Assembly: GCA_021776925.1 (NCBI GenBank)
Contig: JAJFFB010000042.1
Coordinates: 1,961-65,960, forward strand
Origin: Planctomycetota bacterium
Lineage (GTDB): Bacteria > Planctomycetota > UBA1135
Length of the DNA: 64,000 nucleotides
Direction: 5' to 3'
Positions within the stretch are counted from its first letter, which is position 1, and each line of letters starts with the position of its first letter. Positions 1 through 5,152 of this stretch are shown piece after piece. A program made the position numbers and the translations under genes. The notes beneath the pieces are model-generated. The model was not told the DNA's origin, ran no database searches, and saw only the letters and a program-made list of their open reading frames with translations.

Positions 1-2466
1 GCCGAGGCCGAAGTGCAATCGCTTGGATGACTGGCACAAGTATCCCTCGCCGGCATGGAGAGTTTGGCGGCAGGTCATGGCGTCGGCCTGAACAATGACA
101 TGTGCGCCGATTGCATCACGGTTGCTGGTGGTACCGCGCAGATTGACAGCCAGGAAGGAGCCTCCGTTCTGCACCCGATTGTGCAGGACACGAAGTCTGG
201 GGGCGGTTCGACTGCGCAGGATGATGTCGAGGCGACCGTCATCGTCCCAATCGCTGTAAGCAGTCGAGCGGCCGTCATCGAGGAACTCGGCGGCGGTCAG
301 ATTGGAGATGTCAGCAAAACTCCCATCGCCCAGATTTAGCCAGCTACGGTTGGATTCACGCCCACTCCAGGACGCGCCCTGTTCTCGTACCAGGTTCTGA
401 ATGCTGGCCCACGCATTGGCGTAGGCGTCGGACTCTACTTCTTCGGTCGGGCTCTGCGACGTCACGCGTCGCCAGAAGAAACTTCACAAATCGTCAGGAT
501 CCTTGTTGGTCAGGAAGCCGTTGGGGTTGTAGATGTCGGCCAAACCGTCGTTGTTGAAATCAAGGAATTGGGAACCCCAGCCCCAGCCGCCGATGGCGAC
601 GCCTGACTGCAAGGTGCCATCGGTAAAGGTGCCATCGCCTTGGTTAACCAGTAAGGTGTTGCCGCGCGCGTGCCGAAGGTAATGACGGTGCTGGTCTTCG
701 TTCTCGCCTTCCATGAACATGTCGGTCTGCGGCACGATGCGCAATCCCGCAGAAGAGAACATGTTCGTCACCAGAATGTCCATGTCGCCGTCTAGATCGA
801 AATCCGCAGTCGTGGCGCCCATCCCGGCGGCGATGTCTTCGGCGCCGACGTCAGAAGCGATGTCGGTGAAGTACCCACCGTCATTGCGAAAGAGGTTGTT
901 GCGTCCGAAATCGTTGGCGACGTAAAGGTCGACGTCACCGTCCAGATCAAAGTCTTCCCATACCCCTGCCAGACTGAACTTCCCATTCACCTTGTCCAGA
1001 CCGACCTCGGCGGTCGCCAAAGTGAATTGTCCTGGTCCATCATTCCTCCAATACAAGTTGGCCGCGCCGTTGTTGGCGTCGTGATAGGGAGTGGGCACGC
1101 TGCCCATGACTCCCCCGGTGGCGTATCGCATGGCGTATAGGTCCAGGTCTCCGTCCTGATCAGGATCCGCTGAGTTGATCGAATAGATGTCTTCCATGCC
1201 GGTGCCACGCATTCGCAAGAGCTTGGTAAACACACCGGCGCCGTTGTTATAGGCCAGGACCAGGTCCGCGCCGACCGAAACCACCAGGTCCTGGTCACCA
1301 TCATTGTCCATGTCAAGAATCAAGGCACTGCGCGTGGCGTCGAGGAAACCGAGGCCGGAGGCCACCGTGCCATCGATGACCTTGCCATCGGGCTGATGCA
1401 ACAACAGACGATTAGGAAGACTGCCCTGCTGCACCAGGTAGATGTCATCCAGTCCGTCGCCATTGACGTCGCCAACCGCCACACCATGGGCGCCGACGAA
1501 CGCCGGGCGCAGCAGACGGTCGGCCTTGTTCTGATAGTCACCGACACCATGAAGGATTTCACTCTCTACGAAGGGAAGATCCTGCAACACGTGCCCGCTG
1601 ATATCCGCCAGCAGCGGACCAGGGCTGCTTGCTTCTTCGAAGCGCAGCAATTTCAAGGACTTCATCCGAACTTCTTCCTCAGGAACGATTTCCCAGGCAA
1701 TTTCCCATTCAAAATTCTGCTGCACCAGGCGCTCCGAAGTTTGTCCGCTGAGGTGGCCAATCACGTGGGTGGTGAACCCGCCGACCAGATCCAAATCGAC
1801 AGAAACAATCTTGGAAAACCCATGCGGCTCGACTCCTTGGTAGGGGCGTCGAAGGTCTTCGGCCAGGCCGCGCAATCCTGCACTGCCGACGAGCGCAGCC
1901 GCTGGATTACTGACGCGCCAAACCGAAATCCCACCGAGGACCTTGACGTCTTCGCTAGGCTCGGGCCGCAGCGGAGTCATGCCCTTGAAGGAAGGACCCA
2001 GCAGGTTGGCGAGCTGATCCTGGTGCCATTTGGGGGCGGCGAGCAGGTGGATCCACGCCTTGACCTTGCCTTTGGCCATATCGTGCAGGACTTCACTTTC
2101 CCAGCCGTCGGCGCCGGCGTCGCGGCGGCGGAAATTGTCCTTGGCCCAATCGGGTTGTTCGAAGTCCCTCCGTTCCAGAAGGACATTCGGGTCCTGTTCT
2201 GACCCCTGCCCGGGTTCCTGGATGGGCTCCTGCCCAGGTCCCTGGCTGGACCCAAGCCCGAGTTCCAGGTCGATTTCGGGACCTGGGTCCTGAACTTGCC
2301 AGGGACCAGGGTTCGCGCCCGATCCGTCGCCTGGTGCTGCTTCCAATTCGAGACTGGGTTGGCCTGCTTGGAGGGGAAAAGTGGCCAGGAAGAGGACGGA
2401 GACCTGGAGAGGGAGGCGCAGCAAGCCTCCGCATCCGAATCGGGTGATGAATTTGGAAGACGGCAT
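1..2466 (-). CDS. Secreted FG-GAP/VCBS-repeat (CRTAC1-like) protein with C-terminal ASPIC/UnbV-like region; in-frame UGA at 484-486 (candidate selenocysteine); runs off the left edge
   Basis: Signal peptide (FPLQA|GQ) and repeated DxDxDGxxD motifs in ORF 484..2466. The same frame stays open for 161 codons after TGA (SFFWRRV...DWDDDGRLD...SNRDAIGA...GEGYLCQSSKRLHFGLG), which is typical FG-GAP + ASPIC/UnbV sequence. Confidence 0.85.
452..477 (-). promoter_or_regulatory. Candidate bacterial SECIS hairpin immediately 3' of the UGA
   Basis: mRNA reads UGA-AGUUUC-UUCU-G-GCGACG-CGUGA-CGUCGC-AGAG. A perfect 6-bp stem starts after an 11-nt spacer, has a 5-nt loop with G then U at loop positions 2-3, and extends 4 bp below a bulged G. 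Confidence 0.6.
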
Positions 2467-2686: not shown

Positions 2687-5152
2687 CTAGCGCTCGACGG
2701 GCTGCAGGATCTGGTGCAGGCGGTCGGCGTTGAAATCGTGCTGGTGCAGGATGTAGACCGCCACGCCCTTTTCACTCGGCGCCTTGCGCCCTATCCACAG
2801 CAGGGCGTCGTATCCGGGTTGGCCGAGGAGGACCTTGCGCAGGGCCTCGCGGGCGCTTTCATCGACCGGCGTGTACACCCCCATGGACGCGCGCGCCGTG
2901 GCGATCACCTCAAGACCGGTACTGGCAAGGGGGGCATCCGGAGCCCCTTCCAGTTCGAAGCCTTGCTGAGTGAGAACCTCGGCCAGCCCCACCACCTGCG
3001 CCTTTTCCTCTTCGGTGCGGAAGGAAAGGTCGTCGATTATCAGGATGCGTCCGGAATCCTCGCCACGCCCGTTGGTCAGTGCGGCAGCGCTTCTTGGATG
3101 CCGCGGCTGCACTCCACCCGTGAGCGCCACTTCAAGGCCTTCGCTCTGTAGGAACTTGAGCGCGAAACCCCAGCCCTCGCCGTCGAATTCGGGCGCGGAA
3201 AGCACGCTTGATGCCTCGGCAGAGGTCATACCGGAATGCACTCGCGGTCCGTCGCGGCCCACCTCGATGACACGCGTAGATTGGGCTGATTCCGAAGAGG
3301 AGAAGATTACCCCGTTGCCCCACTGGCTGGAGCGGTGTTCGCGAACAGCCGTGAACGCTCCTGCCACGAGGAGCACCACAAACGCCAGCGCCACCCAGAC
3401 CCCGCGGTTGGGATTGCTGGTGAAGCACCCGCCGCGTTCCCGCAGCTGCGCCTTTTTGCCAACCAGATAGGCGCGCTTTTCGGCGATGTGCCGTTTGGCA
3501 TTCTGGCGTGCCTGACGCGCGGCCTCGCGTGCCTGGCGCGCGGCTTCGCGCGCCTGCAGTGCGGCGGCGCGGGCGTGGGCCCGCGCCGAACCCGGCACGG
3601 GGGGGGGCAAGGTTGCGCCGGCGGCAGCGGCATAGGCGGCAGTGACCGGGCCCTCGCGATAGGCGGGCCCAGGCAGGGCTTCAAAGGACTCAGGAATGGG
3701 CAGCAGGGTGCCCGGCGCGGCTTTGCCGGTCGGCGGCAAGGGCGGCGGCGGCACCACCGCCGGGTTGACCGCCTGGCCTCCCATGGAAGGCAGATCGGCC
3801 GGACGCAGTGCGAACAAATCGTCGGCGAACTGCACCCGGCGCACGTCGGCGGCCATTTCCGCTGCGTTGGCATAGCGCTGGTTGAGATCGGCCATCGAGC
3901 GACGGATGATCCAGGCAACGGTCTCGGGGCAGTTTTTGGAAACCCGACTCAGGCTGCCGTGCGCCGGGAAGCTGTCTTCAATCATCGAAAACAAGACCGC
4001 ACCAGCGCCATAAAGGTCGAAGCGCGCGCCGTCGACTTCGTGCACCTTGGCGCCGCGCAGCGCCTGACGCACCAGCTCCGGATCTCGGTAGTACTCGGTG
4101 CCGTGGGTGGTCAGGGTCAGCGCCGAACTCAGCGGTGTGACCAGACCGAGGTCGACCAGGTGCGCGCGCCCATTGCGCACGATGATGTTGTCGGGCTTGA
4201 TGTCTTTGTGCCACAAACCGCCGCAGTGGAAGCGGTCGAGCGTGGTGAGCAGGTCGGCAAGGTAGCCCAGCGACTCCTTGATCTGTTTGTTGCCCAGCCC
4301 CTTCGGCCCGGCCTTGGCGTGCATGCGCTGCACCACCGCGGAAAGGCTCTCGCCCGGTACATAGGGCATGACGTAGTAGTAACGGCGCTCATCCAGGCCG
4401 TGTTCGAGCACCATGCCCATCTTCTTGGCCGATTCCAAGGCACGGCTCTCGCGCACGATCTGAGATAGATTGGAGCCTTCATCCAAGCCGAAGCACTTGA
4501 TTACGACCTGCGCCGGAACCGGGTGACCGGCGCGCGCGAACTCTTGCTGTTTATCGGCATCGGGCTCGGCAACGTAGAGCTTGGCCCCGGATCCGCCGGT
4601 GGGCAGGCTGCCGACCACCTGGAAGCCATCAAAGCCGCGCCCGCGTTTGGGCTTGTCGCGCCCGGGGGCACCCACCCGGGCCACCGCAGCCTTGGCTGCG
4701 CGGCGCTTCAGCAGGCGATGCCGTTTGGGCGCCTTGGCCACCGCGCCAGCCGGCGGGGGCAGGTCGGGGCGCAGGCCGCCATCGGCGTCGTAGGCGGCCC
4801 GGCGATGGTTGCGTCGCGCCTCAAGCGTTTCGATCAGGTTGCCGAAGGCCAGCTGATAGAGGGAGCGGCCGGCGCGCAGCCCTTCGGTCTCGAGCTTGCC
4901 CCCCCAATGCCGCGCTGCGGACCAGCGCCCAAGGACCACCTGCAGCAGGATCAGGGGCACGAAGGCCACGCAGGACAGGGTCGAGGCGACCAATTGCAGG
5001 AGGTCACGCGCGGAGTGTGTAACGAACATCAGGCTCAGGCCCGCTACCCAGAAAGCCAATCCGATCAGGCGGAACGCAACAAAAACGCCTAGGCCGGCAG
5101 CGGCCACGGCGCCAAGAATGACTACGAAGGGAAGCGAGAGGGCAGTGGTCAC
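2687..5152 (-). CDS. Membrane-bound Ser/Thr protein kinase (Hanks type)
   Basis: VVIK, HKDIKPDN, DLG and HGTEYYRDPE motifs; N-terminal hydrophobic helices, a further TM segment (VWVALAFVVLLVAGAF) and a C-terminal domain. GTG start. Confidence 0.9.
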   Translation of the reverse strand: MTTALSLPFVVILGAVAAAGLGVFVAFRLIGLAFWVAGLSLMFVTHSARDLLQLVASTLSCVAFVPLILLQVVLGRWSAARHWGGKLETEGLRAGRSLYQLAFGNLIETLEARRNHRRAAYDADGGLRPDLPPPAGAVAKAPKRHRLLKRRAAKAAVARVGAPGRDKPKRGRGFDGFQVVGSLPTGGSGAKLYVAEPDADKQQEFARAGHPVPAQVVIKCFGLDEGSNLSQIVRESRALESAKKMGMVLEHGLDERRYYYVMPYVPGESLSAVVQRMHAKAGPKGLGNKQIKESLGYLADLLTTLDRFHCGGLWHKDIKPDNIIVRNGRAHLVDLGLVTPLSSALTLTTHGTEYYRDPELVRQALRGAKVHEVDGARFDLYGAGAVLFSMIEDSFPAHGSLSRVSKNCPETVAWIIRRSMADLNQRYANAAEMAADVRRVQFADDLFALRPADLPSMGGQAVNPAVVPPPPLPPTGKAAPGTLLPIPESFEALPGPAYREGPVTAAYAAAAGATLPPPVPGSARAHARAAALQAREAARQAREAARQARQNAKRHIAEKRAYLVGKKAQLRERGGCFTSNPNRGVWVALAFVVLLVAGAFTAVREHRSSQWGNGVIFSSSESAQSTRVIEVGRDGPRVHSGMTSAEASSVLSAPEFDGEGWGFALKFLQSEGLEVALTGGVQPRHPRSAAALTNGRGEDSGRILIIDDLSFRTEEEKAQVVGLAEVLTQQGFELEGAPDAPLASTGLEVIATARASMGVYTPVDESAREALRKVLLGQPGYDALLWIGRKAPSEKGVAVYILHQHDFNADRLHQILQPVER

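Follow-up and report, generated by a model that had tools for sequence, protein, structure and literature searches.

A candidate family of bacterial selenoproteins combining an FG-GAP/UnbV_ASPIC propeller with a fused thioredoxin-fold domain

The DNA considered here (the window) is a stretch of 64,000 nucleotides from a Planctomycetota bacterium (GenBank assembly GCA_021776925.1, contig JAJFFB010000042.1, denoted C140, positions 1961-65960); the assembly totals 4.59 Mb in 203 contigs and is 87% complete. At the start of the window, on the reverse strand, lies a gene for an FG-GAP/UnbV_ASPIC protein in which codon 661 is an in-frame TGA. In all likelihood this UGA is a selenocysteine (Sec) codon, as an earlier note on the same DNA had proposed: the TGA is conserved among relatives, it is followed by a hairpin specific to the TGA-containing forms of the gene (TGA forms), and the genome carries the sel genes. 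The gene very probably represents a new bacterial selenoprotein family that is decoded in the standard bacterial way.

In the proposed mechanism, SelB and Sec-tRNA(Sec) would be recruited by the hairpin, which is formed by the codons of the conserved motif WRRVTSQ, and the ribosome would insert Sec at position 661 to give a single protein. This product would consist of an FG-GAP/VCBS beta-propeller and a UnbV_ASPIC domain, as in CRTAC1, followed by a fused TlpA-like thioredoxin domain. The positions of the features are collected in Table 1.

The interrupted gene and the conservation of its TGA codon

The earlier note held that a 660-residue open reading frame (ORF) ends at the TGA and that the same frame then stays open to the window edge; the 161 codons without a stop were confirmed. 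Beyond the edge, the gene extends 826 bases further, to a true stop (TGA) at C140 1137..1135, and the read-through product, taken over the full frame on the contig, has 1097 residues. The sole restart listed after the in-frame TGA is the GTG that the note had singled out (ORF 1..465, 155 aa, MTSQSP...). As it had also anticipated, standard gene callers split the gene, and its halves are stored in the database as P0095 (660 aa) and P0123 (430 aa).

The same codon is interrupted elsewhere in the genome. A paralog (locus L022, C38:1150-4344, forward strand), 45% identical over residues 94-1083, has a single in-frame TGA (C38 3007) in the sequence ...DKDDL-U-SFFWRRVTSQSP and carries CVGC in its thioredoxin domain. 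From TTG TGA to GTCGCA, 35 of 35 bases are identical between the window gene and this paralog, and the DNA just upstream diverges. In the assemblies of two public sequencing runs, X1 and X2, the contigs break at window positions 455-495, with loose ends that continue into the C38 paralog; these breaks are due to the 35-base stretch common to the two genes.

Among 41 genomes of the same order, 29 contain a match at E <= 1e-20, and TGA occupies the column in 51 of the 65 alignments that span it. In a sample of 301 genomes of the phylum, 41 contain a match at E <= 1e-40, and 71 of the 79 matches listed have exactly one TGA; one of these genomes contains six TGA copies. An analysis of this column on wider DNA found TGA in 91 of 108 distinct genes. 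A scan in which each species was represented by a single genome then yielded 80 loci from named metagenome-assembled genomes (MAGs), 51 of them with TGA (Planctomycetota 21 TGA and 3 sense, Verrucomicrobiota 23 and 0, Acidobacteriota 6 and 25). Combined, these sets give 141 distinct genes from three phyla with TGA at the column and none with TAA or TAG. In several relatives, a divergent subfamily that is 30-40% identical (VDL-U-SAFWRTVV or DL-U-SIWWRHG) forms tandem pairs of TGA genes about 3 kb apart.

The residue at the Sec column in 119 full-length database homologs with a sense codon is Glu (49), Ser (22), Asp (14), Ala (12) or Gly (9), and more rarely Cys (5), Asn (2), Arg (2), Met (2), Trp (1) or Thr (1); in the named-MAG loci, Asn is common at this column in Acidobacteriota. 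None of the 17 and 29 sense-codon genes from two genome sets has a Cys codon there. The expectation of a TGA, a Cys or both at this position thus held for TGA, whereas Cys is scarce and Glu, Ser and Asp predominate. Two of the full-length database homologs, P0028 and P0058, have Arg at the Sec column and retain WCAPC; they may be very recent replacements, since a single base change separates TGA from two codons for Arg, CGA and AGA.

The hairpin, the Sec machinery and the decoding of UGA

The earlier note had described a perfect GCGACG/CGUCGC stem with the loop CGUGA after an 11-nt spacer, and these elements can be read directly at positions 483..456. Counted from the UGA, the stem begins at a distance of 11 nt and the loop at 17 nt; the hairpin alone has a folding energy of -9.6 kcal/mol. 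The model of the bacterial selenocysteine insertion sequence (bSECIS) given in section 5 and the Fig. 2 legend of a 2026 review (PMC13188914) comprises an apical loop of 3-9 nt, an upper stem of 4-16 bp, a G at loop position one or two, a UGA-to-loop distance of 16-37 nt, and a minimum free energy (MFE) of <= -7.5 kcal/mol. The window hairpin, with its 5-nt loop in which G is second and is followed by U, its 6-bp stem and the distance and energy just given, falls within all of these published ranges.

Comparison with relatives links the hairpin to the TGA codon. Among 91 TGA forms, there are 42 distinct hairpin sequences, which start 10-12 nt after the UGA in 80 of the 91 and 15-17 nt after it in ten, and which have loops such as CGUGA, GGUCG, GUG, GUC, GGUC and the like. 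All six pairs form, in either of two registers, in 125 of the 141 distinct TGA forms versus 1 of 44 sense-codon forms (Fisher's test, p = 2e-27, for related sequences and with kinship uncorrected), which argues that conservation of the protein motif does not by itself account for the hairpin. In an ungapped alignment of 90 TGA-form sequences (A3), which mixes the hairpin registers, 83.7% of the cells of the six named pairs are paired versus 73.2% in shuffles, and none of 500 shuffles reaches the observed value. Double-sided changes occur in 60 cells versus 19.7 expected, all slid controls are lower, and the observed covariation score is again attained by none of 500 shuffles. This covariation rests on pairs 21-31 (AU 27, GU 26, CG 14, GC 6, UA 4) and 23-29 (AU 41, GC 31). 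The covariation of the hairpin, named by the note as a check, is therefore present, both as compensatory changes and as a specificity to TGA forms.

Two sense forms keep a SECIS-like hairpin in the usual register: L153 (G133:C24, GCGCGA-GGUGA-UCGCGC), with Asp at the Sec column, and L151 (G290:C1, GGCGUG...CACGCU), with Glu. These hairpins could be relics of a recent loss of Sec. A permissive Rfam scan of window positions 300-700 found no SECIS family; its matches to SAM-SAH (E = 0.19) and sroD (E = 8.5) are at chance level.

The machinery for Sec insertion, another check proposed by the note, is complete in the genome, with selA, selB, selC and selD all above curated cut-offs. The selA match scores 436 bits, that of selB 293 bits and that of selD 296 bits; the last gene itself has one in-frame TGA at the canonical SGUAAK site. 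The tRNA-Sec scores 70.8 bits and is called tRNA-SeC, with anticodon TCA, by ARAGORN. These genes cluster on one contig (G000 C132:44143-52274) except for selB, which is on C116. Across the 41 genomes of the order, selA is above the cut-off in 38 and selB in 39. Ordinary stops, too, are most often TGA: among stop-terminated frames of at least 400 codons, 1629 of 2647 end in it, which indicates that the code is not reassigned and that the recoding is local.

Several observations weigh against the decoding of UGA 661 as Sec. The sel genes are non-discriminating, since selA is found in 21 of 25 sense-only genomes versus 24 of 25 genomes with TGA forms; moreover, a genome with a TGA form, G351, has no selA match, and G005 (83% complete) has no selB match and a weak selA match. 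The window hairpin has an MFE of -11.8 kcal/mol versus -10.85 +/- 2.5 kcal/mol in dinucleotide shuffles (z = -0.38); of 200 shuffles, 70 are as stable or more so. Taken singly, this hairpin is not above chance, so that its significance comes only from the comparison with relatives. In that comparison, RNAalifold predicts no consensus pairs on the 90 sequences of A3 with their mixed registers, and the raw MFE fails to separate TGA forms (-11.5 kcal/mol) from sense forms (-10.3 kcal/mol; p = 0.10). The loop G is invariant and the loop U near-invariant among TGA forms, and this conservation is confounded because the first two bases of the Val codon are conserved in sense forms too. The presence of Cys in just 5 of the 119 sense homologs is atypical for selenoproteins.

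Other readings of the TGA codon have to be set beside its decoding as Sec. That it is a nonsense mutation, the mark of a pseudogene or a sequencing error private to this genome is favoured only by the fact that a stop codon interrupts the gene, and is so improbable as to be negligible: TGA occupies the same column in the C38 paralog and in the 141 genes of three phyla, and both halves of the gene are under purifying selection, with their domains intact. The earlier note had asked for reads to exclude a sequencing error; in the assembled contigs of four public runs, which belong to one study and one of which may be the source of the assembly, there is no difference at positions 484..486, a site that the records of runs X3 and X4 span. 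Another explanation is that there are two genes, the first stopping at the TGA and the second starting at the GTG, with the hairpin serving for coupling or regulation. Indeed, the GTG sits in the hairpin loop, and the databases contain 412 proteins, 239-762 aa long, that match the C-terminal region of the gene product (E <= 1e-30); the best of these begin with (M/V)TSQSP at the GTG. These database fragments, however, are gene-caller output and no evidence of separate proteins. The stop codon is TGA in every case, the reading frame is never lost, and the six codons from the TGA to the GTG give SFFWR(R/Q), as in uninterrupted sense homologs. In 90 TGA forms, the variation in these codons is 0.36 at third positions versus 0.13 at first and 0.19 at second positions, which indicates that translation continues through them in the upstream frame. 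The residue W665 does not vary within the family, and a split would cut within the propeller. The spacer AGUUUCUUCUG is not purine-rich, and no ribosome-binding site was seen in it by eye. The exclusive use of TGA, the SFFWR codons, the third-position variation and the invariance of W665 together argue against two genes, which are very improbable here. It is also highly unlikely that UGA is read through without selenium, by a near-cognate tRNA (for Trp, Cys or Arg) aided by the hairpin, to give a full-length non-selenoprotein. The inserted residue is not distinguishable by computation, the column tolerates one-base neighbours of TGA (Gly 9, Cys 5, Arg 2, Trp 1 and Ser 22, the Ser codons being unexamined), and the single hairpin of the window is of ordinary stability; all of this would suit such a read-through. 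Opposed to it are the complete Sec machinery of the genome and the wide distribution of selA and selB in the order. Moreover, the position, size and G-U loop of the hairpin fit the SelB-type bSECIS model in the cited parts of PMC13188914, and leaky decoding would be costly where TGA is the main ordinary stop. Finally, the tight link to a nucleophilic Cys in the fused thioredoxin fold, described below, points to a redox-active chalcogen at position 661.

Domain architecture and the association of residue 661 with CxxC

The 1097-residue protein is probably exported, judging from its N-terminus. The part of the N-terminal region spanning residues about 95-310 (window about 2180-1540, reverse strand) is conserved family-wide, with W122 and E125 nearly invariant. 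FG-GAP repeats follow: Pfam FG-GAP_3 (PF13517) reaches 118.8 bits over five stretches, exceeding its gathering score of 26.9, and FG-GAP reaches 40.7 bits. The earlier note had attributed further FG-GAP repeats and the ASPIC/UnbV domain to the downstream half, which is borne out by UnbV_ASPIC (PF07593) at residues 785-849, with 72.3 bits versus a gathering score of 23.4. Residues 731-848 match human CRTAC1 (PDB 9etn; phmmer, E = 2e-13). The NCBIfam scan found no model that spans the Sec region.

The note had also held that the protein has no classic redox fold. This does not stand for the whole gene, which encodes, beyond the window edge, a thioredoxin-fold domain (residues 893-1028, with C929-L-N-C932) whose CxxC co-varies with the Sec codon. 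Pfam AhpC-TSA just exceeds its threshold on this domain (26.7 versus 26 bits), Redoxin does not (23 versus 26.6), and the NCBIfam cut-offs for TlpA (40.1 versus 230), ResA (34 versus 170) and DsbE (16.3 versus 123) are not reached. When residues 890-1028 are aligned to TlpA (PDB 1jfu), WGTDCLNC falls on WATWCVPC, which places CLNC at the canonical active-site CVPC. The domain is filed as TlpA-like and not as TlpA itself.

The association between Sec and CxxC is seen in several sets of sequences. In the first 24 Sec forms, each has one CxxC, 267-276 residues after the U, whereas in the alignment A1 only 2 of 79 non-Sec homologs have a full CxxC, the motif being degenerate in the others. For larger sets, the counts refer to genes with enough downstream sequence: CxxC is present in 74 of 75 TGA forms from the column analysis (the exception, SSIC, is L119) and in 47 of 48 from the named MAGs, versus 0 of 6 and 1 of 29 sense forms, respectively. 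Over 271 genes, 119 have Sec and CxxC, 2 have Sec without CxxC, 8 have CxxC without Sec, and 142 have neither; that is, CxxC occurs in 119 of 121 Sec forms versus 8 of 150 others. The non-Sec forms that retain CxxC have at the Sec column Cys (3), Arg (2), Asp, Ser or Ala, and of the five Cys forms among the database homologs, three have CxxC. In the alignment A2 (1096-residue query), 24 Sec forms and 41 sense forms are separated by seven positions, 661, 929, 669, 671, 701, 923 and 935; the cleanest are 661 and 929, the latter being the first, nucleophilic Cys of CxxC, each at 100% versus 0%. In a FastTree phylogeny of the 271 genes, at least 12 changes of state are needed for Sec and at least 11 for CxxC.

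This co-occurrence suggests a functional link, most simply a redox relay from Sec to CxxC. Such a relay, in which Sec661 in the propeller would be the reactive centre and the fused CxxC its reductant, is on balance the favoured account of the function. Sec661 would be oxidised by a substrate; the first Cys of the CxxC, acting as nucleophile, would then reduce the Sec, and the CxxC would be recharged, as happens in other members of the TlpA family, by a thiol-disulfide carrier in the membrane (CcdA or DsbD, for example). Homologs that have Glu, Asp, Ser, Asn, Ala or Gly at the column and no CxxC would be non-redox versions of the same scaffold. Less favourable to the relay are three TGA forms, L123 (G096:C129), L124 (G120:C17) and L128 (G069:C117), which end after UnbV_ASPIC, about 200 residues past the Sec, without a thioredoxin domain. 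The two Sec forms without CxxC, L119 with SSIC in its place and L204 with none in the expected range, are further exceptions. If the relay exists, all five would require a separate reductant. In addition, the coupling is carried by a small number of independent events: an independent-pairs test, which is underpowered, found only six pairs, of which about four are concordant, none is opposite and two show no difference (median p = 0.125).

A rather unlikely alternative, which concerns the function only, is that Sec661 is a soft-metal ligand kept reduced by the CxxC domain and that the homologs with Glu, Asp, Ser or Asn bind a hard cation. In Mo/W enzymes with a bis-PGD (pyranopterin guanine dinucleotide) cofactor, one ligand position may be filled by Sec, Cys, Ser or Asp; TlpA, for its part, acts as a reductant of copper-handling proteins. 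The sense residues at the column are indeed mostly oxygen ligands (Glu 49, Ser 22, Asp 14 and Asn 2 of 119), and DxDxDG calcium loops are seen in the FG-GAP repeats of the sequence. However, Ala (12) and Gly (9), which are unable to ligate a metal, also occur there, and A2 contains no other Sec-specific ligand residues, only 661, 929 and five positions that are nearby or coded by the SECIS. If the relay operates, the protein could define a new extracytoplasmic class of selenoenzyme, with a catalytic Sec on an integrin-like beta-propeller that is regenerated by the fused thioredoxin domain; along with the CxxC, its Sec site would have interchanged with residues other than Cys (Glu, Asp, Ser, Asn) at least 12 times, by gain or by loss. 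This broader proposal is put forward tentatively, as having a little less than an even chance of being right.

Genomic context, known systems and significance

The surroundings of the gene give no indication of an operon partner: in 16 loci of about 17 kb, no protein cluster recurs in more than four loci apart from those of the gene's own two halves. In 3 of these 16 loci, a sulfatase lies near the gene. Outside the window, just past the true stop and beside the contig end, lies an ORF on the forward strand (C140:74-about 1100) that is Cys/Arg-rich at its start and that possibly encodes a transposase.

Table 1. Features of the TGA-containing gene and of related loci (window coordinates, unless a contig or residues are named)
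Feature	Position	Strand	Remarks
ORF, codons 1-660 and UGA	2466..484	-	ATG start; ends ...NGFLTNKDPDDL (ORF list, translation)
In-frame TGA, codon 661	486..484	-	motif DDL-U-SFFWRRVTSQSP; putative Sec codon
Spacer, 11 nt	483..473	-	AGUUUCUUCUG; codes S-F-F-(W)
Hairpin	472..456	-	stem GCGACG (472..467)/CGUCGC (461..456); apical loop CGUGA (466..462)
GTG (Val668) inside the hairpin loop	465..463	-	seven codons past TGA; gene-caller start of a separate C-terminal protein
Codons 662-822, same gene	1..483	-	last FG-GAP repeats and start of UnbV_ASPIC; 161 stop-free codons to base 1
Probable signal peptide	N-terminus MPSSKFITRFGCGGLLRLPLQVSVLFLATFPLQA	-	sequence read by eye, no tool
N-terminal region without Pfam match	residues about 40-310	-	Pfam scan
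Upstream gene, 821-residue protein	2687-5152	-	Pkinase domain, 62 bits (Pfam)
selA	C132:44143-45483		loci L019, L001, L003 region; G000 sel cluster
selD	C132:48313-49239		itself a selenoprotein (SGUAAK); G000 sel cluster
tRNA-Sec	C132:52182-52274		G000 sel cluster
Tandem TGA-gene pairs	G001:C12 63069-67203; G023:C52 48252-52386; G004:C35 22322-26631; G029:C2 184278-188200		

In the databases, the C-terminal halves are known under the names "ASPIC/UnbV domain-containing protein", "peroxiredoxin", "thiol-disulfide isomerase/thioredoxin" and "hypothetical protein". The 14 best of these fragments all begin (M/V)TSQSP, and among the matches listed (120 of the 412) 117 have CxxC and none bears a selenoprotein name.

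The system resembles FdhF-type bacterial selenoproteins in its in-frame UGA, its coding-region hairpin directly downstream with a small loop of G then U, and the selA-D genes of the genome; the distance of 17 nt from the UGA to the loop likewise lies within the 16-37 nt of the bSECIS model (PMC13188914, cited parts). It differs in that the Sec would lie in a beta-propeller motif, DL-U-SFFWR, rather than in a UxxC/CxxU thioredoxin-type motif or a Mo/W centre, and in that the hairpin overlies a motif whose amino acids are conserved in non-Sec homologs too. With the thioredoxin-fold selenoproteins catalogued in PMC13188914, it shares a TlpA/redoxin-type fold and a likely redox role. In those proteins, however, Sec replaces a Cys of CxxC, whereas here the CxxC is ordinary and the Sec would be about 268 residues upstream in another domain. 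The CRTAC1/ASPIC family (PDB 9etn) has the domain make-up of residues about 315-850, and sense-codon relatives are named "CRTAC1 family protein" or "VCBS repeat-containing protein" by NCBI, but CRTAC1 has neither Sec nor a fused thioredoxin domain, and the 9etn match stops short of the Sec region. The likeness to TlpA/ResA (PDB 1jfu, 4txo, 1st9), over residues 890-1028, is at the level of the domain only, which here is the C-terminal one of a much longer protein.

In the main texts of the literature searched, the candidate selenoprotein family of FG-GAP/UnbV plus thioredoxin proteins is new. The whole text of the review PMC13188914 does not contain FG-GAP, VCBS, UnbV or CRTAC1, and its Table 1 of 119 families and subfamilies has no entry for FG-GAP, VCBS, UnbV_ASPIC or CRTAC1. 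Full-text searches for selenoprotein or selenocysteine with FG-GAP, ASPIC, UnbV, CRTAC1 or VCBS returned unrelated papers or none. FG-GAP/ASPIC terms are likewise absent from the main texts of BSepDB (PMC13326102), the GOS survey (PMC2398784), a 2022 review (PMC9312934) and a preprint (10.1101/2022.07.06.499078). They are also absent from the main text of deep-Sep (PMC12013277), whose Table S2 might still list a member. The selenoproteins of two planctomycetes described in PMC4807772 are listed only in its supplement (S9), which might hold one too.

If the decoding proposed here is right, the family is a large addition to the known prokaryotic selenoproteome, with 141 distinct genes in the genomes sampled, and hundreds of database records in which the two halves figure as separate proteins need correction. 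The three phyla concerned are common in sea water, sediments and soils. The family may have been missed by methods based on Sec/Cys pairs because its sense relatives have mostly Glu, Ser or Asp and rarely Cys at the column; such searches would systematically miss it and others alike, which suggests that other selenoprotein families may hide in the same way. For this bacterial family of unknown function, the finding that Sec and the fused CxxC tend to occur or to be missing together provides a testable hypothesis.

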